From NCBI GenBank assembly GCA_040400605.1, contig JBBAPZ010000007.1:1-19384 (forward strand): a stretch of 19,384 bases of DNA, given 5' to 3'. Positions 1,726 to 19,384 of the stretch are shown piece by piece. Numbering within the stretch: position 1 is the first letter of the stretch; the number at the start of each line of letters is the position of its first letter. The DNA is from Candidatus Sericytochromatia bacterium. Lineage in GTDB: Bacteria > Cyanobacteriota > Sericytochromatia > S15B-MN24 > JAQBPE01. The notes beneath the pieces are model-generated. The model was not told where the DNA came from and did not search any database. It saw only the letters and a program-made list of their open reading frames with translations. The translations under genes were made by a program, and so were the position numbers.

Positions 1726-1925
1726 TCGCAAGCCAGGCACTTAAAAAATCGCGCTGATTAGTGAATGAAATTCTGACTGTTTTTCGACAGCAGCGCGTCG
1801 GTGCCTGATGTTTTCGAGTCTGCTACACAGGTTTGCAAAAAAGCTTTGCATCACCGCATGGTCACTTGTCACCCGTCAGCCATACGGGTAAGACCACAAG
1901 ATCCTGGTGATGAAGCCTACGACCG

Positions 1926-1966
1926 GAAAAATCTGAGCCTGCCGCTTCAATGTTGCGGCAGGCTCA
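1926..1966 (-). terminator. Rho-independent terminator for the recombinase-family gene
   Basis: Perfect 12 bp stem TGAGCCTGCCGC (1934-1945) / GCGGCAGGCTCA (1955-1966) with a 9 nt loop. On the minus strand it is followed by GATTTTT and lies about 30 nt after the stop codon at 1998. Confidence 0.7.
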
Positions 1967-1997: not shown

Positions 1998-2783
1998 TTA
2001 CGCCATCTGGACAATGTCTGTGTGGCTGTTGACCTGCTGGAACAACTCTTCCGTGATCACCGCCTCGTGATCATTCGGATACAGACGGTTTTGACACTGG
2101 TATGCACCCGTGTAAAACACGTTTTCCAGAATCGTCTTCACCGTATTCGCCTGCCAACGACCACCGCGCTTGGTCGCGATGCCATCGCGGGTAAGGTCAT
2201 TCGCAATTTGACGCAAACTCCGACCAGACAAACGCTCCCGGAAAATACGCTTGACGACATTGCCCTCCAACGGCATCACCTGATACTGGTTGGTTGCCTC
2301 ATTCAACACGTAACCGTAAGGACACGTGCCCCCGTTGTGCAAGACCTCTCGACTGCGGACAAAGGTTCGCGGACGCTCCTTCACCGGATGCCGCATCATC
2401 CGCGCCACTTGCGGCACCTTGATGAAGAAGCGCAACAACTGCTGACCTTCCGACCGCTCCGTATCAATCTCCTCCTCGATGGCAATCAATCGAATATCCC
2501 GATTATTCACCTCACCTATCACCACCGCCACATCGTGGAAACGACGCCCCAAGGAAGCCAATGAGGGAACCACGACAACCACTTGCGGCATCTGCAACAG
2601 AGCAGACAAAGCCGGCCGTTCCAACGCGTTGCCAGTCACCGCATCCTCCACACACACATCCATCAAGTCGATCGTGTTAGCTTGGCAATACGCGCGGAGC
2701 TTCTGTGTCTCTCGCTCAACCAGTTCCGCATTCAACGCCTCTTCCGGCGCCATCCATATGTATCCAACAGCACTCACGGACAT
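1998..2783 (-). CDS. Serine recombinase family protein (resolvase-like N-terminal domain + Recombinase DNA-binding domain), catalytic motifs degenerate
   Basis: The N-domain follows the resolvase pattern (AVGY..., LRAYC, ERPALSALL, VVVV..L..LGR, EEIDT...G). The C-domain has GG.CPYGY, VKRIF, SLRQIANDL, GGRW...TVKTILEN.FYTG and HEAVITEELF. The start is placed at ATG 2783, 8 nt after AAGGAG; the ORF track uses GTG 2792. Confidence 0.85.
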   Translation of the reverse strand: MSVSAVGYIWMAPEEALNAELVERETQKLRAYCQANTIDLMDVCVEDAVTGNALERPALSALLQMPQVVVVVPSLASLGRRFHDVAVVIGEVNNRDIRLIAIEEEIDTERSEGQQLLRFFIKVPQVARMMRHPVKERPRTFVRSREVLHNGGTCPYGYVLNEATNQYQVMPLEGNVVKRIFRERLSGRSLRQIANDLTRDGIATKRGGRWQANTVKTILENVFYTGAYQCQNRLYPNDHEAVITEELFQQVNSHTDIVQMA

Positions 2784-3067
2784 CTGGAACACTCCTTACG
2801 AATCTTAACTCGGCTACTCTCACCCGTTTGCAACACTTCCAAGACCCTTATAGCAACCACCCACGCGCAGCTTGCGGCAATGGGATTAAATCAGGGGTAA
2901 GATATTGTTAAATCTACCACGTTATCAGCCAAAAACCGCGCACCGAGACCGTTTCAAGCAAAAATCTCAAATCAGTTGACATCAAGGTGACAGGTTCCAG
3001 CCATTCCATTAACGACGGGGTTTGAAGGGGGCGTGAGTACGCGATGTGTTCAGCATGACGAGAGGAT

Positions 3068-9056: not shown

Positions 9057-9183
9057 GTTGTCAAAACCCTTTCCTGAAACAACCGCTCATCGTCGCATGC
9101 CCAAACGCGTTTGACCAGATGCGTGTTAAGATCCAATTGGCCTTTTGGTAATTCGCGTAAAATCTTCATCAAGGAGAGTCCCA

Positions 9184-12100
9184 ATGGATGTGACCGCCTC
9201 CGCACCACCAACGACCACATCGTACGCCCTGACAAACAAGGTGCGTTTTGTGACCGCCGCCGCGCTGTTTGACGGTCATGATGCTGCCATCAACATTATG
9301 CGGCGGATTTTGCAGGCATCAGGCGCGGAAGTGATTCACCTGGGTCACAACCGCTCTGTGTTGGAGGTTGTGGAGACTGCGATCCAAGAAGATGCGCACG
9401 GCATTGCGCTGTCCAGTTATCAAGGCGGCCATTTGGAGTATTTTCGGTACGTGGTTGACCTGTTGCGCGAACGGGGTGCCGAACACATCCGGGTGTATGG
9501 TGGGGGTGGGGGTGTAATCGTACCGGCTGAGATCGCTGAGTTGCACGCGTATGGCGTTGCACGGATCTTTTCCCCGGAAGACGGGCGCGTGCTTGGTTTG
9601 CAAGGCATGATTGACTTGATGCTACGCGAATGTGATTACCCGATGGCGGCCAAAGGGATGCCGGAGGTTGACACGCTAACACTCGGTGCGGATGGGGCGA
9701 TCGCACGGGCCATCACCTTGGCGGAGGCCGGTCATCACGGCGAGTGGTTGGAGCAGGTCCGAGGCCGGGCCGCGCAGCGCGCAACACCGATTCTTGGGAT
9801 CACAGGCACGGGTGGCGCAGGCAAATCCACGTTGACCGATGAGTTGGTGCGGCGGTTTATGAACGACAACCCCGAGAAGTCCGTCGCCATTTTGTCGGTG
9901 GATCCGTCCCGACGCAAGACGGGGGGCGCGTTGCTGGGCGATCGCATCCGAATGAATGCCATCAATCACCCCCGTGTCTACATGCGCTCGCTTGCCACGC
10001 GCGAAGCCCACGTCGCAACCTCGCGCGCTTTAAATGATGCGATCAACGTCGTCAAGGCGGCGGCTTACGATCTCGTCATCGTCGAAACGGCGGGCATCGG
10101 CCAAAGCGATTCAGCCATCGTTGATAGCGTCGACCTGACACTTTACGTCATGACCAGCGAATTTGGCGCAGCCAGTCAACTGGAAAAAATTGACATGCTC
10201 GATTTCGCCGATCTCGTGGCCATCAACAAGTTCGACAAACGCGGCGCCCTCGACGCGTTGCGTGACGTTCGCAAAACCCTCCAACGCAACCAGAAACGCT
10301 TCGATGAAACCCTCGAGGCCATGCCGGTTTTTGGCACCATCGCCTCCCAATTCAACGATGCCGGCACAACCGACCTGTATCAAGCCGTTTTAACCATGCT
10401 CAACACCCGGACCAACAGCCAGTTTGAAACACGCCTGATGCAACCGGCCACAGACAGCCGCAAACAGGCACTGATTCCACCCCATAAAGAACGCTATTTG
10501 TCTGACATCGCCGACAGCGTCACGCGCTATCACGCGCAAGCCCAGGCAGAAGCCCGTCAGGCGCGCGAAGCCTACGGCTTCTGGCTAAGCCTCAAGGCTT
10601 TGGGAGCACCCGTTTCGACCATGGGCCAAGCCCTTCCAGCGATGGACAGTGCGCCTGGTACCAGCGACTTTGTCTGCCAGGCTTTACAGACGCGTTATAC
10701 AACGAGTCTTGAGGCGCTTGAGCCGGCTGCTCGCAATTGGTTGCAGAACTGGCCGGCACGCTCAGCCCGCTACCAGTCAGAGCGCCACACCTACGTGGTG
10801 CGTGGGCGAACCATCGCGGTGGAAAACCATACATCAAGCCTGTCGAATCTGCTGATACCCAAAGTTGCGCTGCCTGCCTTCAGCGATTGGGGAGACCTGC
10901 TGCTGTGGGCACACCGCGAAAATTTGCCGGGGCACTTCCCTTTTACGGCCGGGGTGTTTGAATACCGCCGCCAAGGCGAGGATCCCACGCGGATGTTCGC
11001 GGGGGAAGGCACACCGGAACGAACCAACAAACGCTTCCATTATTTATCAAAAGGCCAGGGTGCCGTGCGGCTTTCCACGGCGTTTGACTCGGTCACGCTC
11101 TATGGTGAGGACCCGGCCACCCCGCCGGATGTCTACGGCAAAATCGGCAATTCCGGTGTATCCATCTGCACGCTCGATTGCGCCAAGAAACTTTATTCGG
11201 GCTTTGATTTGTGCCAAGCCAACACATCCGTGTCCATGACCATCAACGGTCCCGCACCGATCATCCTCGCCTTTTTCCTCAATACCGCCATTGACCAGCA
11301 AGTCGAAAAGTACCTGCTTGAAACCGGTCAGTGGGAACAAGCCGAGGCGTTGATTGTCGAACACTTTGCAAGCTTGGGCCTTGAGTGCCCGGTTTATGAG
11401 GGTGCGGATACGCCGGCAGGCGATCGCTTATTCGGACTGCGCACCTTGGGCGTGACAGGTGACATGCTGGTTGATGCGGCCACGTATCAACGTATCAAGG
11501 CTGAAACACTCACAGCCGTCCGTGGCACGGTGCAGGCGGATATCCTCAAAGAGGACCAGGCCCAAAACACCTGCATTTTTTCCACCGAGTTTGCCCTCCG
11601 GATGATGGGGGATATCCAGCAATACTTTATAGACCATGGCGTGCGCAATTATTACTCGGTATCCATCAGCGGGTATCACATTGCGGAAGCCGGGGCCAAT
11701 CCGATTACGCAGCTCGCGTTTACCCTCGCAAACGGTTTCACGCTGGTAGAGTATTACTTGAGCCGAGGCATGGCCATTGATGATTTTGCACCCAACTTGA
11801 GTTTCTTTTTTTCGAACGGGATTGACCCTGAGTATGCGGTGATTGGTCGTGTGGCACGTCGCATTTGGGCGATCGCCATGCGCGAGCGCTATGGTGCGAA
11901 CGAGCGCTCCCAAAAACTGAAATATCACATCCAGACGTCGGGGCGATCGCTTCACGCGCAAGAGATCGATTTCAACGACATCCGCACCACCCTGCAAGCC
12001 CTCTATGCCATCTACGACAATTGCAATTCCTTACACACCAATGCCTACGATGAAGCGATCACCACCCCCACCGAAGCCTCCGTCCGACGCGCCATGGCCA

Positions 12101-12621
12101 TTCAGCTCATCATCAACCGGGAGCTGGGTCTCAACAAAAACGAAAATCCCTTGCAAGGCGCCTTCATCATCGATACCCTGACCAATCTGGTCGAGGAAGC
12201 CGTCTTGCTGGAATTCAGGCGCCTCTGCGAGCGCGGCGGGGTATTGGGTGCCATGGAAACCATGTACCAACGCGGCAAAATCCAGGAAGAATCCATGCAC
12301 TACGAAACCCTCAAGCACTCGGGTGATTTGCCAATCATTGGCGTCAACACTTTCTTGAATCCCGAAACCGAGAGCATCACCCATGTCACGGAACTCATTC
12401 GCTCAACCGAAACAGAAAAACAACAGCAAATCACCAATTTGAAGCGCTTCGCGGTCTCCCGCGCCAGCAAAGCCGAACAAGCGTTGCAGCATCTCCAAAC
12501 CACTGTCCTGGCAAACGAAAACATCTTTGATGCCTTGATGGAAACCGTGAAACATTGCTCACTTGGAGCCATTACACAAGCACTGTATCAAGTCGGTGGC
12601 CAATACCGTCGCAACATGTGA
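9184..12621 (+). CDS. icmF: Fused isobutyryl-CoA mutase / MeaB-like GTPase chaperone IcmF
   Basis: N-terminal B12-binding domain ([23 protein letters not shown]), then a GTPase ([19 protein letters not shown]), then the mutase barrel ([53 protein letters not shown]). The start is placed at ATG 9184, after AAGGAG (9171-9176); the ORF track uses 9145. Confidence 0.95.
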
Positions 12622-12635
12622 CAAGGCGATCGGCC

Positions 12636-13349
12636 TCAGGCGTCGAAGGCTTCAGGCAACCAAAAACCCGTGCGAATCCAGCCATCCGTTGCCTCAATCG
12701 GATACGTGCGACCCCCATTCCCTCGCTCAATCACGCCCCGGAACAGGACCAGACCAATCCCCGCCAAGTCGCCATTGAGCATCCGTTCGCACACGGCAGC
12801 ATCGTCACCGACCTGGCAAAACATCGTCACTGCTACACCCCCATTCTCCCGCCGAACGTCAAGGGTGATCGCCGTGAGCGTAGACTCCTGCTTCAAAAAC
12901 GCCTCCAAGACCTGAGACAGAATCAACTCCACGCTTTCTCCATCAGCACGCACCAACAAAGGGCCCGGCTGCAATCGAAGTTCCCAGGCGACACCACGAC
13001 ACCGAGACTCCTCACCCACGCGCTCATCAAGCGTCTGAAACAACATCCGCAGATCAATCGCCTGCTTCAACCAACGCAAATTGCCCGCATCCAACCGACA
13101 CACTGTCAACCAATTCTCAAGCAACCGGTGCAATTCCTGTGCATTCTTCTCAATGCTCAATGCCAGATCACGCGTCTCGGGACCACTCAACTCCGCATCG
13201 CCTATCAATGACGCTGCACCCATCAACACCGTCAAAGGCGTCCGTAACTCATGCCCCCACATCTCCCAATCAATTGGCGCCATCACCCGTTCACGACGTC
13301 GCTCATTCGGGACGAACATTTCACCGGCATCCATATAATAACTACACAC
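12636..13349 (-). CDS. Sensor-less histidine kinase-like protein (HisKA + degenerate HATPase)
   Basis: H-box GHELRTPLT, LHRLLENWL..CRLDAG helix, residual G2 box AGIGL and NGG. The start is uncertain (13349, 13334 or 13283). Confidence 0.75.
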   Translation of the reverse strand: MCSYYMDAGEMFVPNERRRERVMAPIDWEMWGHELRTPLTVLMGAASLIGDAELSGPETRDLALSIEKNAQELHRLLENWLTVCRLDAGNLRWLKQAIDLRMLFQTLDERVGEESRCRGVAWELRLQPGPLLVRADGESVELILSQVLEAFLKQESTLTAITLDVRRENGGVAVTMFCQVGDDAAVCERMLNGDLAGIGLVLFRGVIERGNGGRTYPIEATDGWIRTGFWLPEAFDA

Positions 13350-13725: not shown

Positions 13726-15387
13726 ATGGACACGACGCAGATGCCAAGCAACAGGGGTTTTTTGTTTGCGACGACAGCTGGACAGGCTGCACCGGGCGCG
13801 TTGATTCAGACGCCTGATCCTGAAACGATCAGAGACGCCATTTTTGCGATCCGTGACACGCTGACGGTTTTGGTGTCGCCGGACGGTTTAAGCTTGTTCG
13901 CCGGGCCAAGGGCGGAAGTACCGAAATCGGAGGGTACACGTGCCGTTGTCGAGGTGCCGCCTGAAACCTTGGCGGGTCTTGGCGATCGCTCGTTTTTGCG
14001 CGATCATTGTTTGCGGTATCCGTACGTCGCAGGTGCCATGGCAAGCGGAATTGGTTCGGCTGCGATAGTCGAAGCCATGAGTCGCGCCGGCATGTTAGGT
14101 TTTTTTGGTGCCGGTGGGTTGTCGCTGGATGCGATCGAGGATGCGATCGACCGTGTGGCTGGTAGCCTGGGCGATCGCCCGTGGGGCTTCAATTTGCTGC
14201 ACAGTCCGCAAGAACCCGCTCACGAAGCGGCCACGGTTAACCTTTATCTCCGCAAAGGCGTGCGCTTGGTCGAAGCGGCGGCATATCTGGATTTGACCCT
14301 GCCGCTGGTGCGTTATCGATTGAGCGGGATTCATCGCGACGCAACAGGACGCATTGTCACACCCAATTGCGTGATTGCCAAGGTGTCACGCATTGAGGTG
14401 GCAACAAAATTTTTTCAACCCGCACCCGACGCCCTGCTGGCGCGTTTGGTCGAAGAAGGGGCACTCAACCCCGAACAGGCGGAATTGGCAAAACACGTGC
14501 CAGTGGCCCAGGACCTGACCGCTGAAGCTGATTCCGGTGGACATACCGACAACCGGCCGGCCATTACCTTGTTACCAACGTTGCTTGCGCTGCGCGATCG
14601 CATGCAGGCGCAGTACCCGCCGGAGCTGCGCTTGCGCGTCGGACTCGCAGGTGGCATCGCAACGCCTGCTTCGGTTGCTTGTGCCTTTGCGATGGGTGCA
14701 GCCTACGTATGCACAGGCTCCATTAACCAGGCGTGCGTCGAAGCGGGCACATCCCCTGTGGTTAAAACCATGCTGGCCCGCGCGGAACAGGCGGATTGCG
14801 CAATGGCCCCCGCCGGTGACATGTTTGAGATGGGCGTGAAGGTGCAAGTGCTCAAACGTGGCACCATGTTTGCCATGCGCGCAGCCAAACTTTATGAACT
14901 GTATCGGAGCCTCGCAAGCCTGGAAGACCTCACACCCGAACAACGCCAAGTATTGGAGCGCGATCACTTCAAAGCGCCCATTGACACCATTTGGCAAGAG
15001 ACCGTCGCCTATTTCGAACAACGGGACCCTGAGCAGGTCGAGCGAGCCAAACGGGACCCCAAGCACCGGATGGCGTTGGTCTTTCGCTGGTATCTGGGGC
15101 AATCGTCCCGCTGGGCGCAGCAAGGCGTTCCCGAGCGACGGATGGATTATCAGATTTGGTGTGGTCCTGCCATGGGCGCCTTCAATGAATGGGTTCGGGG
15201 CAGCTTTTTGGAGCCGGCCGAAGCCCGCGACGTGGTCACGGTCGCACGCAACCTGCTGGTCGGCGCGGCCGCTTTAAACCGCTACAATCATTTGATGCGC
15301 CATTGGCCAGATACACAGGCATTTCCTTTGCTCACCCTCGGCACCCGAATTTTTTCCCGCGAACAACTTGAAAGCCTCTTGGCTTGA
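13726..15387 (+). CDS. pfaD: PfaD-family FMN-dependent enoyl reductase of a PUFA/polyketide synthase
   Basis: YVAGAMASGI, GFFGAGGL, NLLHSP, AKVSRIEVA, EADSGGHTDNRP, AGGIATP, TGSINQACVE, MAPAGDMFEMGVKVQVLKRGTMF and DYQIWCGPAMGAFN are all hallmark PfaD motifs. Confidence 0.93.
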   Translation: MDTTQMPSNRGFLFATTAGQAAPGALIQTPDPETIRDAIFAIRDTLTVLVSPDGLSLFAGPRAEVPKSEGTRAVVEVPPETLAGLGDRSFLRDHCLRYPYVAGAMASGIGSAAIVEAMSRAGMLGFFGAGGLSLDAIEDAIDRVAGSLGDRPWGFNLLHSPQEPAHEAATVNLYLRKGVRLVEAAAYLDLTLPLVRYRLSGIHRDATGRIVTPNCVIAKVSRIEVATKFFQPAPDALLARLVEEGALNPEQAELAKHVPVAQDLTAEADSGGHTDNRPAITLLPTLLALRDRMQAQYPPELRLRVGLAGGIATPASVACAFAMGAAYVCTGSINQACVEAGTSPVVKTMLARAEQADCAMAPAGDMFEMGVKVQVLKRGTMFAMRAAKLYELYRSLASLEDLTPEQRQVLERDHFKAPIDTIWQETVAYFEQRDPEQVERAKRDPKHRMALVFRWYLGQSSRWAQQGVPERRMDYQIWCGPAMGAFNEWVRGSFLEPAEARDVVTVARNLLVGAAALNRYNHLMRHWPDTQAFPLLTLGTRIFSREQLESLLA

Positions 15388-15405
15388 TCACAATAGGAAA
15401 CACCC

Positions 15406-18400
15406 ATGTCCGTGCCTCAAAACCCGGCCCCCACCCACGCGCCCTTGGCCGTCATTGGCATGGCCTGCCTGTTTCCGCAGGCAGACAATTTGGGTGCTTA
15501 TTGGGCCAACATCAGACACGGGCGTGACGGCATCACGGCCATTCCGGAATCACACTGGCGCGTGGCTGACTATTACGACGCAGACCCCAAAAAATCTGAT
15601 CACACCTACGCCAAACGCGGTGGCTTCATTCCCCCCGTACCCTTTGATTGCGCGACCTACGGCATTGCGCCGCATAACCTGGAAGCGACGGATGTGTCGC
15701 AACTGCTCGGTTTGGCAGTTGCCGACGCAGCCCTTGCGCACGCCGGTTATGGCGCGATGAGCGATGCGCAACGGCAAACCGTCAGTGTCATTTTGGGTGT
15801 TACCGGCACCTTGCAACTGGTCATCCCACTTGGCGCGCGCCTCGGGCACCCACAGTGGCGTCAAGCGTTGCTTGATGCGGGTGTCAGTCCCGCCGTCGCC
15901 AACGACGTTGTCGCACGGATCGCAGACAGTTATGTCCCGTGGCAGGAAAACTCTTTTCCAGGCCTGCTTGGCAACGTCGTGGCGGGTCGCATCGCCAATC
16001 GCCTGAACCTTGGCGGAACCAACTGCGTGGTGGATGCCGCCTGTGCCAGCAGTTTGTCTGCAACACACATGGCTGCACTCGAATTGAACGGCGGGCGTGC
16101 CGACATGGTCATCACGGGTGGCGTGGATACCTTTAATGACATTTTCATGTATATGTGCTTCTCAAAAACGCCGGCGCTCTCACCAAGTGGTGATAGCCGG
16201 CCCTTTGATGCGGCTGGAGACGGGACCATTTTGGGGGAAGGCATTGGGATGGTCGTGCTCAAAAGACTGGCAGATGCCGAGCGTGACGGTGACTGTATTT
16301 ATGCTGTATTGAAAGGCATCGGTACCTCCAGTGACGGGCGGGGCAAGGCCATTTACGCACCCAGTGCCCAAGGGCAGATTCAAGCCCTGAACGCGGCTTA
16401 CCAACAAGCGTCCGTGACACCCGACACCATCGAATTGGTTGAAGCCCACGGCACCGGTACGAAAGTGGGTGATGCCATTGAACTGGACGCCTTGCGGCAG
16501 GTTTACGGCAAGGCGCAAACAGGTGCTTGGTGCGCGTTGGGTTCGGTGAAAAGTCAGATTGGTCATACCAAGGCGGCGGCGGGAGCCGCAGGGTTGCTAA
16601 AAGCCGCATTGGCCCTGCATCACAAGGTCTTGCCTCCCACGCTGAAAGTGAACGAGCCACTTGAAGCCCTGCAGGCACCTGATTGTCCCTTTTATCTCAA
16701 TACCGCCGCACGCCCCTGGCTCAAGCGCCCCGCCCATCCACGGCGGGCTGCGTTGAGTGCGTTTGGTTTTGGTGGCAGCAACTTTCACGCGGTTTTAGAG
16801 GAGTTTGGCGAACACAAAGCGGCGATTGACTGGCATGGGGATCACGAAGTGGTCTGCCTGGGCGCCGACACGCCAGATGGCATCACTGCCCAGTTTGAAC
16901 AGATGCGCGCCCTGTCGGAATGGCACGCGTGGCGTCTGTTCGCGCATCAATCACGCGCGCGATTCCGTGTAAGCGATACCCATCGCCTCGTCTTCATCGT
17001 TGAGGCGGATCCCCTCACAAGAACCAAATGGCTTGACACCATTCAAGCCCACTGGTCCCGGACCGAAGCGCCGTGGTCTTTGCGCGACGGGGCATGGTGC
17101 GCGTCTGGCGCAGCACCCGGTGCGCTTGCAGCGATTTTTCCGGGACAAGGCTCGCAATATGTCGATATGGGACGCGATTGGGCCTGCCAATTTCCGGAGG
17201 CCTTTGATGCCTGGCAAGCGGCGGAAGACGCCTTTGAAACGGTCGGAACAGCGCGTGCCAAAGGTTGTCGCCTGATTGACTGTGCCATGCCACCTGCGGC
17301 ATTCTCAGAAGCGGCCAAGCAACAGCAAGCCGTGCGCCTGCGTGAAACCGATGCGGCCCAAGTGGCGATCGGTGCCATGAGCATGGGACTGTGGCAGGTG
17401 CTGCAGCGTTTTGGTGTGCAAGTATCAGCCGTTGCCGGACACAGCTATGGTGAACTGACCGCCTTGTGGGCAGCAGGTCGTTTGCAAGACGCTGATTACT
17501 TGCACCTGTCCGCATTGCGCGGTTCACTCATGCACGCCGAAGGACACAGTGGCGGCGCGATGCTCGCGGTTCATGCCAGTGCCAAGGAGGTCCTTGCCGC
17601 TCTGGAATCGGCCCAATTGCCAGTTGTCATCGCCAATTACAACGCCCCGCGGCAAGTGGTGCTCTCAGGTCCCATCGAGGCCATCGACGCGGCGACAAAG
17701 CGCCTTGAGGCCCAAAAGTTACGAAGCAGCCGTTTACCCGTTGGTGCGGCGTTTCACAGCCCCTTGGTCGCCGCGGCGCAAGTCCCGTTTGCCGAGGCAC
17801 TCAAAGCCGTTCCGTTTCAGGACGCGCAAGTCCCGGTTTATGCCAACACCACGGCTGAACTGTACCCGGAGGATGCCCGGCAGGCGCAAGTGCTGTTGGG
17901 CGGACAATTGGCGCAAAGCGTTAACTGGGAAGGCATTGTCAGACGCATGCTCGAGTCTGGCGTGCGCACCTTTGTCGAGGTGGGGCCGCAGAATCGTCTG
18001 AATGGTTTGGTGCAGGCGATCGCCACCGATTACCCAGGGGTCTCGGTCATCTCCTTGGATGCCCAAGGCGGCAAGCGTCGCGCGGACCTCGATTTGGCAC
18101 ACACGCTGGGACACCTCGCGGCACTGGGCTACTTGGTTGACTGGTCACCCTGGCAAGGGGGCGATGCCGTCTATGAAGGCCTGGCGGCACGCAAGACCCC
18201 CAAAATGGCCGTGATGCTATCAGGTGTCAACCACCGCAGCACCCAGCCTGCCCCACGCCCCGCTACACTCAGCCATCCCGTCGACAGCACCAAATCACTC
18301 GAACCAGCATCAACAGTGGGCGTGAAGGCATCTACCCCCGCAGCCCCAGCAGGGGTAAACAGCCGCCCAGGCGTCAACGCAACCCCGATTGCGACAAATG

Positions 18401-19384
18401 GCGCATCACCTGTGAACAGCGCAGCAGCAACTGTCATCTCGGTAACGGCATCCGTGAATGGTGCACAAAGCCAGGTCGTGGGATCCATTGCACCGCCCCT
18501 CACGCCCAATGCGTCACCGGCAGCCCAACAGGCTCTGCTCGCGCTGCAACAGTTGGCCAGCGACACCGCCCGTCTGCACGCCCAGTTTCTTGAAACCCAA
18601 TCCCGCACCCAACAAATGGTTCTACAATGGCTCAACCCGCAAGCGGTGACAAACGGCCACGCGACGGCAGCTGCCAACGGCCACGGTGCTTCTCCTTCGA
18701 ACACAGGGTTGACAGCGCCAAGCGCGCCCATCCCCAACCCATACCCGTTACCCCAGACGCCTGCGGCACAACCGAGCGCTTCCACGTCAGTTTCCGCACC
18801 CAGACAACCCGAGGGCGCAGTCCCCCCCCTTGGGATGGCAGGCGTAGCCGCCCCCATGCCCCGAACCATTGACAACCCGACAAACGCGAATCAATGCGAG
18901 GGGCCAGCGACACCAAGTGCACAAGCGGGGTCAGGCGCCGTGGCGGCCAAGCTGGATGAGACGGATCCCTTGGCCGTTGAAGTAGCGGCTCAGTTGCAGC
19001 AGCGTGTGCTTACGGTGGTGGCGGAAAAAACCGGGTATCCCGTTGAGATGCTGGGCCTTGAGATGAGCCTGGAGGCGGACCTGGGCATTGATTCCATCAA
19101 GCGGGTGGAGATTATGGCCGCCTTGCAGCAAGCCTTGCCCCAAGCCGAGCCGGTTGCCCCGGAGCGTCTGGGCAGCCTGGTCACCTTGCAGGATGTGCTG
19201 GCGGCGCTAAGCAAGCAGGCGGTGCGATCGCCTGTCACGGGCGCATCGGGTGCCGTGGCAACCAAACGTGACGACGTGCCTCAAACGGACGGTTTGAGTG
19301 TTGAAGCAGCGGCTCAGTTGCAGCAGCGTGTGCTTACGGTGGTGGCAGAAAAAACCGGGTATCCCGTTGAGATGCTGGGCCTTG
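15406..19384 (+). CDS. pfaA: PfaA-type iterative type I PKS/PUFA synthase (KS-MAT-ACP-ACP...), 3' truncated by the window edge
   Basis: Translated by hand from ATG 15406 (MSVPQNPAPTHAPLAVIGMACLFP). KS: WQENSFPGLLGNVVAGRIANR, DAACASSL, EAHGTGT (16441), KSQIGHTK, SAFGFGGSNFH. MAT: FPGQGSQY, AGHSYGE (about 17434) and AFHS. ACP: EKTGYPVEML...LEADLGIDSIKRVEI (about 19024-19113), with a second ACP starting near 19300. All motifs are in one frame, and the ORF is absent from the track because it has no stop in the window. Confidence 0.93.
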   Translation, partial: MSVPQNPAPTHAPLAVIGMACLFPQADNLGAYWANIRHGRDGITAIPESHWRVADYYDADPKKSDHTYAKRGGFIPPVPFDCATYGIAPHNLEATDVSQLLGLAVADAALAHAGYGAMSDAQRQTVSVILGVTGTLQLVIPLGARLGHPQWRQALLDAGVSPAVANDVVARIADSYVPWQENSFPGLLGNVVAGRIANRLNLGGTNCVVDAACASSLSATHMAALELNGGRADMVITGGVDTFNDIFMYMCFSKTPALSPSGDSRPFDAAGDGTILGEGIGMVVLKRLADAERDGDCIYAVLKGIGTSSDGRGKAIYAPSAQGQIQALNAAYQQASVTPDTIELVEAHGTGTKVGDAIELDALRQVYGKAQTGAWCALGSVKSQIGHTKAAAGAAGLLKAALALHHKVLPPTLKVNEPLEALQAPDCPFYLNTAARPWLKRPAHPRRAALSAFGFGGSNFHAVLEEFGEHKAAIDWHGDHEVVCLGADTPDGITAQFEQMRALSEWHAWRLFAHQSRARFRVSDTHRLVFIVEADPLTRTKWLDTIQAHWSRTEAPWSLRDGAWCASGAAPGALAAIFPGQGSQYVDMGRDWACQFPEAFDAWQAAEDAFETVGTARAKGCRLIDCAMPPAAFSEAAKQQQAVRLRETDAAQVAIGAMSMGLWQVLQRFGVQVSAVAGHSYGELTALWAAGRLQDADYLHLSALRGSLMHAEGHSGGAMLAVHASAKEVLAALESAQLPVVIANYNAPRQVVLSGPIEAIDAATKRLEAQKLRSSRLPVGAAFHSPLVAAAQVPFAEALKAVPFQDAQVPVYANTTAELYPEDARQAQVLLGGQLAQSVNWEGIVRRMLESGVRTFVEVGPQNRLNGLVQAIATDYPGVSVISLDAQGGKRRADLDLAHTLGHLAALGYLVDWSPWQGGDAVYEGLAARKTPKMAVMLSGVNHRSTQPAPRPATLSHPVDSTKSLEPASTVGVKASTPAAPAGVNSRPGVNATPIATNGASPVNSAAATVISVTASVNGAQSQVVGSIAPPLTPNASPAAQQALLALQQLASDTARLHAQFLETQSRTQQMVLQWLNPQAVTNGHATAAANGHGASPSNTGLTAPSAPIPNPYPLPQTPAAQPSASTSVSAPRQPEGAVPPLGMAGVAAPMPRTIDNPTNANQCEGPATPSAQAGSGAVAAKLDETDPLAVEVAAQLQQRVLTVVAEKTGYPVEMLGLEMSLEADLGIDSIKRVEIMAALQQALPQAEPVAPERLGSLVTLQDVLAALSKQAVRSPVTGASGAVATKRDDVPQTDGLSVEAAAQLQQRVLTVVAEKTGYPVEMLGL
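18976..19384 (+). repeat. Tandem ACP-domain DNA repeat (period 324 bp)
   Basis: 18976-19060 and 19300-19384 (GTTGAAG[T/C]AGCGGCTCAGTTGCAGCAGCGTGTGCTTACGGTGGTGGC[G/A]GAAAAAACCGGGTATCCCGTTGAGATGCTGGGCCTTG) differ at only 2 of 85 positions by eye. Confidence 0.9.

Follow-up and report, generated by a model that had tools for sequence, protein, structure and literature searches.

A single-copy serine recombinase homolog with a lost active site, vertically inherited in Sericytochromatia and probably kept as a DNA-binding protein

The gene discussed here lies on the minus strand, as do all of its features named below, at 1998..2783 of a 19,384-nt stretch of DNA from Candidatus Sericytochromatia bacterium (contig JBBAPZ010000007.1; hereafter the window, in whose positions all coordinates are given). 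Its product of 261 amino acids is probably a domesticated, non-cutting, sequence-specific DNA-binding protein derived from an enzyme of the large-serine-recombinase type. We infer the absence of catalysis, the binding of DNA and any regulatory role from what can be observed directly, i.e. the fold, the lost residues, the distribution and vertical descent of the gene, the purifying selection acting on it and the cis-elements before it. A sequence-only reading of the window had proposed much the same, namely a catalytically dead recombinase with an intact Recombinase domain that was repurposed as a regulator, an architectural protein or a dominant-negative inhibitor of incoming integrases.

Where active enzymes have G-Y-x-R-x-S-T, the window protein has G7-Y-I-W10-M-A12-P13 (residues 7-13; 2745..2765), and where they have D-R-L-x-R-x-x-x-D it has A76-S-L-G-R80-R-F-H-D84 (residues 76-84; 2532..2558). 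The sequence-only reading had pointed to both departures, and they can be read directly from an alignment that is gap-free around both motifs to the GYVRVSTEKQ and KLDRLTRS of Ser-bearing relatives. This alignment pairs W10 with Arg8, A12 with the nucleophile Ser, A76 and S77 with Asp67 and Arg68, and R80 with Arg71, in the gamma-delta/Tn3 numbering, which is consistent with PMC2794168. The genome-wide Pfam match opens at profile position 4 on Tyr8, placing profile position 8 on Ala12.

A census of 38 distinct orthologs taken from genomes gives the same picture for the family as a whole. Tyr at the Tyr6 position, Trp at the Arg8 position and Arg at the Arg45 and Arg71 positions are found in all 38, and the Asp36 position is always acidic (Asp in 25, Glu in 13). 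No ortholog has Asp at the Asp67 position, and at the Arg68 position one finds Ser (22), Ala (6), Asp (5), Asn (2), His (2) and a single Arg. The nucleophile position, Ser10, is far more variable (Ser in 15, His in 8, Ala in 4, Pro in 4, Gln in 3, Asn in 3 and Thr in 1), with Ala in the window copy. Other residues are new to the family: P13 (36/38), G79-R80-R81-F82 and D84 (38/38), H83 (33/38) and P124-Q125 (38/38). The invariant lesion is the change of Arg8 to Trp plus the loss of Asp67 and Arg68. Loss of the nucleophile, on which the sequence-only reading had placed its emphasis, holds for the window copy and is not the family-defining lesion, since many orthologs retain the Ser; an expected shared loss of Ser gives way to varied residues, Ser included, and what is shared instead is the Trp. 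With Trp at the Arg8 position in every ortholog, none keeps the Y-x-R-x-S that would have spoken for a recently damaged enzyme. Ser is commonest in the deeper families (f5, f6 and most of f7; f1, f2 and f4-f7 denote taxonomic families within the class of the window) and is replaced by various residues in the order containing the window. This pattern, near-universal loss of Arg8, Asp67 and Arg68 with Ser surviving in deeper lineages and then repeatedly replaced, suggests an order of active-site decay, and would fit a history in which the change of Arg8 to Trp came first and a useless Ser drifted later.

The functional weight of these losses can be judged from Tn3 resolvase, for which Olorunniji and Stark (PMC2794168) report that changes of Y6, R8, S10, D36, R68 or R71 strongly reduce cleavage and recombination, and that none of the mutations strongly inhibits binding to site I. 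The window protein lacks three of these six residues, and two of the three, Arg8 and Arg68, have disappeared family-wide, apart from the one ortholog in 38 that has an Arg at the Arg68 position.

As to the architecture of the protein, the former catalytic domain of the Resolvase type (residues 1-125; 2409..2783; PF00239 and Foldseek) is followed by a shortened helix E with the invariant P124-Q125 and then a variable proline-rich linker (residues 111-152; 2328..2453; alignment and model), and finally by a Recombinase domain, the DBD1 of large serine integrases (residues 153-253; 2025..2327; PF07508 and Foldseek). Pfam gives a match to Recombinase (PF07508, E 2.3e-21) and one, above cut-off, to Resolvase (PF00239, E 4.5e-14). 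No third Pfam family appears at E <= 1, and hence there is no zinc-ribbon match. The protein stops 8 residues beyond the Recombinase domain, the terminator coming next, which leaves no zinc ribbon (DBD2) or coiled coil, and family members are all about 260 aa long; in this respect, too, the sequence-only reading was right. Its claim that the helix-E region is broken by prolines is borne out both by the sequence (K-V-P124-Q-V-A-R-M-M-R-H-P-V-K-E-R-P-R) and by an AlphaFold2 model built from a 78-row alignment (mean pLDDT 88.6). The model has an alpha/beta N-terminal domain, a helix at 111-122, a break at P124, a further helix at 124-130, a lower-confidence linker up to residue 157 (block-mean pLDDT down to 59) and a compact Recombinase domain at 158-253, and in it no long continuous helix E reaches out to a minor groove. 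A homodimer prediction from two copies with the family alignment scored 0.01 against a mark of 0.42, which counts neither for nor against a dimer.

Structural comparison by Foldseek against the PDB ranks large serine integrases at the top (E 4e-14 to 1e-7): the SPbeta integrase (E 4e-14), Bxb1, the N-terminal and recombinase domains of phiC31, TP901-1 (catalytic domain 3bvp, TM 0.77 on the target) and the LI integrase-DNA complex. The catalytic domains of Sin and gamma-delta are matched as well, and the Recombinase domain matches the large serine recombinase-DNA complexes 4kis, 9dxh and 9iu2, and also 4bqq. By sequence, the best match to a solved structure is 9dxh (E 5e-8), and the HMMER alignment to it pairs N213, within R-W-Q-A-N-T, with Y237 of the SPbeta integrase. 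According to the structural passages of PMC11722253, Y237 of DBD1 enters the DNA major groove in the SPbeta integrase, while helix E of large serine integrases has its C-terminal part docked in the minor groove, and the zinc ribbon and coiled coil carry the integrase-integrase contacts. N213 falls within T-K-R-G-G-R-W-Q-A-N-T-V-K-T-I-L-E-N (residues 204-221; 2121..2174), a stretch that is near-invariant in the family alignment. The Recombinase domain is the better-conserved half of the protein, with a mean pairwise identity of 0.67, compared with 0.44 for the N-terminal domain and 0.46 for the linker. Thus the putative DNA-reading surface is frozen, and what would be the minor-groove part of helix E is now a variable proline-rich tether.

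The distribution of the gene is that of a core gene of one class. The genome of the window (3.7 Mb in 174 contigs, 94.5% complete) has one copy. Among 47 genomes of the class, 45 have a match at E <= 1e-5 and 43 have exactly one match of ortholog grade (E <= 1e-45, 37-68% identity, no internal stops), all 43 frames being intact; all 23 high-quality genomes have the ortholog. Three of the four genomes that do not have it are 64%, 74% and 75% complete, and the fourth has a 163-aa partial match. In 254 other genomes of the phylum there was no ortholog, the best match (E 1.6e-20, 31% identity) belonging to ordinary recombinases. A search of 5.8 billion clustered proteins yielded 92 homologs of full or nearly full length at E <= 1e-41, with 36-98% identity and, in nearly every case, about 260 aa, after which there is a jump to proteins of about 233 aa (E 8e-17 and below) with G-Y-V-R-V-S-T-E-K-Q and K-L-D-R-L-T-R. 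A filter-free HMMER search of 1.84 billion representatives gave just seven matches at E <= 1e-30; the Trp form was limited to the top matches and fragments, and Ser-bearing forms begin at about E 1e-29. Among 147 further HMMER matches listed, 109 are canonical by regular expression and most others by eye, and three more that were listed are family members already known. The source names attached to the homologs are Candidatus Sericytochromatia, Candidatus Blackallbacteria and "Cyanobacteria bacterium UBA8530".

In a maximum-likelihood tree of the 38 orthologs and six Ser-bearing outgroups every taxonomic family forms one clade, and the tree requires seven changes of family label for eight groups, the minimum possible, a value reached in none of 200 shuffles. 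The gene is inherited vertically. The capture is old, of the age of the bacterial class, and clean, in that it left a single copy with vertical descent.

Both domains are under purifying selection. In 11 ortholog pairs with a dS of 0.15-0.45 the Nei-Gojobori dN/dS was 0.026-0.371 for the whole gene, 0.025-0.41 for the N-terminal domain alone and 0.012-0.36 for the Recombinase domain alone, and in one additional pair dN was 0. Pairs between genera were not used because codon bias compresses their dS, and for the window copy against other genera, where dS exceeds 2.4 and the ratio is unusable, a comparison of strains was used in its place. A subsurface metagenome contains the same stretch with 2 differences in 1601 bases. 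A more distant metagenome strain, X5 (92% identical), has 103 differences across 1374 bases, none of them an indel within the gene, and 24 of the 25 coding differences listed are synonymous, with 61 further differences lying beyond those listed. The sole replacement among those listed, Q249H, recurs among the four differences to protein P0002. Of the 49 columns with at least 95% conservation among the other 37 orthologs, the window protein moreover retains 47. Both the expectation of a dN/dS below 1 and the domestication proposed by the sequence-only reading are thus supported, the latter by the single copy in 43 of 47 genomes, the minimal number of family-label changes, the dN/dS values and the housekeeping neighbours described below.

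If the protein is indeed a non-cutting DNA-binding derivative, one can envisage how it works. The derivative would have been fixed in the common ancestor of the class and inherited vertically ever since. The Recombinase domain, with its one near-frozen helix, would be the most likely working part; as this helix is the counterpart of the major-groove helix of the SPbeta integrase, the protein probably has a single fixed DNA sequence as its target. The former catalytic domain, its pocket remodelled (W10, P13, R56 and G79-R80-R81-F82-H83-D84), may persist under selection as a scaffold or for dimerisation. The second half of helix E, which active enzymes place in the minor groove at the crossover site, has been replaced by a flexible linker, so that the DNA-binding domain would be loosely tethered. 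A conserved promoter of its own and a gene-specific TTAA array, described further below, could then serve in its control, the array as a candidate operator.

Several observations do not sit easily with this interpretation. The net charge is +2 for the Recombinase domain (family mean +1.5) and -8 for the N-terminal domain, unlike that of a strongly basic DNA binder. Ser still occupies the nucleophile position in 15 of 38 orthologs, mainly in the deeper families, and as Tyr6, Arg45, Arg71 and an acidic residue at the Asp36 position are also kept, some chemistry is possible in those members. The invariant G-R-R-F-H-D and the Trp might belong to a new active site or ligand site, and not to a scaffold. 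In addition, the end branch of the window copy is long (0.43; median 0.069), the dN/dS pairs are not independent of one another, and the differences to strain X5 beyond those listed weaken that comparison.

Upstream of the gene there are elements that are conserved together with it. The ATG at 2783 is preceded by an AAGGAG ribosome-binding site at 2792-2797, 8 nt ahead of it. An open frame at 1998..2792 would encode 264 aa from a GTG, but this GTG falls within the AAGGAG site, and we therefore regard the ATG as the real start; homologs likewise start with MSxAVGY, and most orthologs have AAGGAG or GAGGAG in the same place. At the other end, an intrinsic terminator at 1925..1965 (dG -37.1 kcal/mol, z -5.8) lies 30 bases past the stop codon and consists of a 14-bp stem and a 9-nt loop, followed by AGAUUUUUCC; none of 200 shuffles folded equally well. 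A simple terminator scanner gave no match here, probably because its loop limit is 8 nt. The gene model of the sequence-only reading, an uninterrupted frame with this ribosome-binding site and a good terminator, proved exact.

Further upstream, at 2846..2875, there is a promoter-like pair, GCAAG - N18 - TATAA, that is shared across ortholog upstream regions in the form (G/A)CAAG - N17-18 - (G/T)ATAA, some 45-100 nt ahead of the start codon. Of 37 upstream regions, 23 have the strict pattern, which is absent from all 37 reverse complements and turns up 0.085 times per shuffled set, counts that are descriptive only since the pattern was defined after the sequences had been seen. A sigma-70 consensus scan found no promoter at the gene. 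The consensus for sigma-28 (SigD) is TAAAGTTT-N11-GCCGATAA, which the promoter resembles, as it resembles, by eye, two of nine flagellin-gene upstream regions of the same genome; this genome also encodes a FliA/WhiG-family sigma factor (contig C23:14757-15425). The promoter-like motif GCAAGTTT - N11-12 - CGATAA is found 67 times in it (for example at C1:179500-179573, C3:132370-132456, C4:208650-208815, C9:88988-89060 and C21:927-985), compared with 12-20 expected under a first-order Markov model, and a looser pattern, with any base before CAAG, gives 101 matches, 46 of them in non-coding context. Thirteen of 30 downstream genes scanned have Pfam domains, and these include a subtilase, clostripain, an M23 peptidase, two LysM proteins, a peptidoglycan-binding protein, a 5'-nucleotidase, PLD, caleosin, an RpoD-like sigma factor and rpsM, alongside many small unknown genes. 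A strictly flagellar role was considered and rejected: most of the 46 similar promoters stand before genes for secreted peptidases, for LysM and cell-wall proteins or for unknowns, and not before flagellar genes, and while 41 of 47 class genomes have flagellin genes (nine matches in the genome of the window), family f6 has flagellin in none of its six genomes, yet the ortholog in four.

Directly upstream of GCAAG, at 2883..2925, are four 11-bp units with TTAA, ATAA or TTAC as their core. In the 23 ortholog promoters, 38 of the 48 TTAA words found up to 80 nt upstream are located exactly at -15, -26, -37, -48 or -49 from the C of CAAG. This ladder is seen in families f1, f2, f4, f5 and f7, and slots without TTAA mostly have ATAA, TTAC or TTAT. 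The sequences are linked by kinship; nevertheless, the register has been kept while the sequence between the boxes and the neighbouring genes have changed. At the other 45 promoters of the same type in the genome of the window, only one of 40 TTAA words is at a ladder slot (2.5 expected), and as these promoters leave the slots unused, the ladder is specific to the dead-recombinase gene. That TTAA is a general part of this promoter type was likewise rejected: loosely spaced boxes are enriched at such promoters (6/46, against 1.7% of non-coding tiles), but the fixed slots are unused elsewhere. We consider the array a candidate operator, at which self-regulation is possible. By analogy, its binder could be the protein itself, as with resolvase at res, or a response regulator.

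The latter option brings to mind the cyanobacterial SphR/PhoB Pho box, which the relevant part of PMC1906773 describes as 8-bp repeats of the consensus CTTAACCT, at least three in tandem and separated by 3-bp linkers. The window array is similar in having 11-bp units at fixed slots, with cores such as CTTAACCA, CTTAACCG and CTTAACTG. In contrast, genes with perfect triplets in the same genome are not phosphate genes, and PstS, PhoU and PhoD were not found in this 94.5%-complete genome, PstB appearing only below its cut-off; identity of the array with a Pho box is not supported. Eight perfect TTAA triplets at exact 11-bp spacing occur in the genome (C3:44349-44374, C3:216758-216783, C6:619-644, C6:24640-24665, C8:37577-37602, C8:70693-70718, C9:89090-89115 and C23:16720-16745), beside genes for an MFS transporter, an EF-hand protein, DUF5995, LysM, PLD and unknowns. 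Looser four-slot arrays number 24 in the first 1.5 Mb, compared with none in two Markov-1 controls. The triplet sites may form the regulon of one DNA-binding protein.

One may consider alternative explanations for a recombinase that has lost key catalytic residues and is nonetheless so well kept. The one that the data contradict is that of a decaying relic of a prophage or transposon recombinase: the loss of catalytic residues and a short protein without C-terminal domains are what such a relic would show, but all 43 ortholog frames are intact without internal stops, descent is vertical, dN/dS is far below 1, 24 of the 25 listed X5 differences are synonymous and no mobile-element genes or flanking repeats were found. 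Neutral decay, which would have overturned the sequence-only reading, has thus next to no probability. It is also quite improbable that the protein is still an enzyme, with residual or new chemistry on DNA or another phosphoester through the Ser where it is kept, through Tyr8 or through His83/Asp84. The Ser of 15 orthologs and the conservation of Tyr8, R56, R80, R81 and D84 (all invariant) and of H83 (33/38) would be accounted for in this way. However, 23 orthologs, that of the window among them, have A, P, H, Q, N or T in place of the nucleophile and are subject to the same purifying selection, the model shows a linker where the minor-groove part of helix E would be, and Arg8 and Arg68 (the latter position having an Arg in 1/38) are gone family-wide, each being required for cleavage by Tn3 resolvase according to the mutant data in PMC2794168. 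A non-catalytic partner, such as a subunit for accessory sites, comparable to resolvase at res sites II and III, or a dominant-negative inhibitor of active serine recombinases, is a somewhat different matter, since Ser-bearing relatives do coexist with the gene: extra matches (E 1e-24 to 1e-13) are found in genomes G011, G021, G022 and G027, and a YCRVSS / DRLSR fragment is located on contig C112 of the genome of the window. The first half of helix E, the dimer interface in active serine recombinases, is also retained in the model. Yet the dead gene is universal and single-copy, whereas active paralogs range from none detected to about five per genome, a mismatch that makes obligate pairing unlikely; there is no conserved neighbouring recombinase, the nearest active forms are just 27-31% identical, and the frozen DNA-reading helix suggests that the protein has its own fixed DNA target. 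Also missing are the zinc ribbon and coiled coil through which integrases contact each other (so the structural passages of PMC11722253). We regard such a partner as improbable, and of the three roles offered by the sequence-only reading, dominant-negative inhibition is the least likely; the protein may act as a regulator or an architectural protein.

A further explanation differs from the one we favour in the use made of the former active site. Here the protein would be a one-component regulator whose pocket (W10, R56, R80, R81, H83 and D84) binds a small anionic ligand or phosphate and thereby switches DNA binding, the protein regulating its own gene at the TTAA array. Invariant family-specific residues right at the former active site (W in 38/38, G-R-R-F-x-D in 38/38, H in 33/38), purifying selection on the N-terminal domain alone and the fixed register of the promoter-specific array all argue for it, and there is a precedent in Tn3 and gamma-delta resolvase, which bind res and repress their own gene. 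On the other hand, we know of no ligand for the serine-recombinase fold, and the units of the array are direct repeats, unlike the inverted half-sites to which serine recombinase dimers bind. The array core and its 8+3 bp period also resemble the Pho box as given in PMC1906773, in which case the binder may be another protein. Such a ligand-switched regulator is unlikely, though worth keeping in mind. A bolder version, a class-specific transcription factor whose frozen helix reads TTAA units at a res-like operator of its own and at a few other promoters, with the ex-active site as a sensor pocket, is a doubtful proposition; if true, an integrase-derived transcription factor would add a new type to the one-component regulators, one that goes back to a mobile-element enzyme and has been fixed since the class arose.

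Returning to the DNA-binding derivative without cutting activity, it is instructive to compare it with known systems. Large serine integrases (SPbeta SprA-YokA, Bxb1, phiC31, TP901-1 and Listeria LI) have the resolvase-type domain, helix E and the Recombinase domain in the same order. The family of the window gene differs from them in having neither zinc ribbon nor coiled coil, in its Pro-broken helix E, in the loss of the Arg8, Asp67 and Arg68 positions (with the one Arg in 38 at the last) and its unconstrained Ser10 position, and in being chromosomal, single-copy and vertically inherited outside any phage or other mobile element. The nearest relatives outside the family (27-31% identity) are the Ser-bearing "recombinase family proteins" of about 233 aa (P0094-P0101 and look-alikes from the class), which come from the same organism group and share A-Y-C and the T-K-R-G-G-R-W-Q-A motif. 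These, in contrast, keep G-Y-V-R-V-S-T and D-R-L-T-R, end within the Recombinase domain and vary in copy number, and in the tree a branch of 3.1 changes per column splits them from the family. Similarity to the NCBIfam models CcrB, CcrC and XisF is local, over the N-terminal and Recombinase domains, and at 65.7, 39.7 and 27.2 bits (cut-offs 900, 900 and 375) the protein is not a member of any of them.

Tn3 and gamma-delta resolvase bind a site array before their own gene, mostly without catalysis at those sites. As a repressor, resolvase resembles the window protein in its serine-recombinase fold and in the site array ahead of its own gene, which here is predicted from sequence alone, and its binding survives the loss of catalytic residues, at least in the mutants covered by the cited passages of PMC2794168. 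It differs in being an active enzyme, in having a small helix-turn-helix domain instead of a Recombinase domain and in its inverted half-sites.

Full-text literature searches, supplements aside, returned nothing on this family or on any serine recombinase that persists as a core gene without being catalytic. That hosts capture transposase and recombinase genes is well established for eukaryotes and has seldom been documented for bacteria. The hosts here are an uncultured, non-photosynthetic sister group of cyanobacteria, for which a putative class-specific DNA-binding protein with an operator-like array would provide a handle on gene regulation, and the Recombinase domain alone, without a zinc ribbon, may serve as a minimal DNA-recognition module.

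The surroundings of the gene are those of an ordinary chromosomal locus. In the window, its neighbours are a convergent M14 carboxypeptidase gene and divergent HAD hydrolase and glucokinase genes, followed by two OPT transporters, a fused B12 mutase/MeaB, a HisKA fragment and PUFA-synthase-like genes. A Pfam scan of neighbours (15 + 5 tested) found no phage or transposon family, as the sequence-only reading had noted, and a search around the gene for flanking repeats and att-like or res-like inverted repeats gave just short chance-like pairs and the terminator; nothing places the gene in a phage, an integrative and conjugative element or a transposon with att sites. Across 21 loci of about 20 kb the gene is surrounded by housekeeping genes, and no recombinase is conserved among them. 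Synteny, which the sequence-only reading had expected to be conserved, is so within families, whereas neighbours differ between them: f1 has the convergent M14 carboxypeptidase in 3 of 4 loci, f2 and f4 have MutS2 upstream on the same strand in 6 of 8, and in f7 one genus has histidine phosphatase and threonine-aldolase-like genes (3 loci) and other loci have a 1860-aa protein without a Pfam domain (4 loci).

Some additional observations concern the transcript and the relatives of the gene. A 260-nt metatranscriptome contig matches 2005-2264 at 94% identity, but this is the sequence of a relative for which DNA carry-over is possible, and it was not used as evidence. In f2 orthologs (loci L011-L014, L016, L018 and L020) a GC-rich hairpin-like element, GGGC..TGAGAGC..GCCC, is found about 20-45 nt before the ATG in what is presumably the 5' leader; the counterpart in the window, at 2811-2826, is weaker (CGGGTGAGAGTAGCCG), and Rfam gave no match. 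The Ser-bearing fragment on contig C112 (locus L002, G000:C112:1-1847, where G000 is the genome of the window) is part of a recombinase gene with Y-C-R-V-S-S and D-R-L-S-R, within which this 1.8-kb contig ends; it follows an overlapping frame and probably belongs to a mobile element that broke the assembly. P0107 (847 aa) and P0126 (662 aa) have Y-T-R-V-N-T or Y-T-R-I-N-T, with Asn at the nucleophile position, and match the query in 4-5 stretches; by these motifs they may represent another non-catalytic serine-recombinase lineage. Several Cyanobacteriia genomes have a single short frame with a Recombinase domain only (L102, at G167:C1:2029998-2030225, L103, L105 and L104), 117 aa long in three genomes and 140 aa in one, with E of about 6e-7 to 3e-6 to the query, values that are nearly the same from genome to genome within one genus.

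Elsewhere in the window, a 1158-aa frame at 9145-12621 combines a B12-binding domain, a MeaB GTPase and a methylmalonyl-CoA-mutase-type domain in an IcmF-like architecture, and a 237-aa frame at 12636-13349 (minus strand) has HisKA alone (E 1.9e-10), with no ATPase domain at the threshold used. From 13726 to 19383, PfaD-like (NMO with a FabD insert) and PfaA-like (KS-AT-ACP repeats) genes form a cluster of the polyunsaturated-fatty-acid-synthase type that runs past the end of the window.

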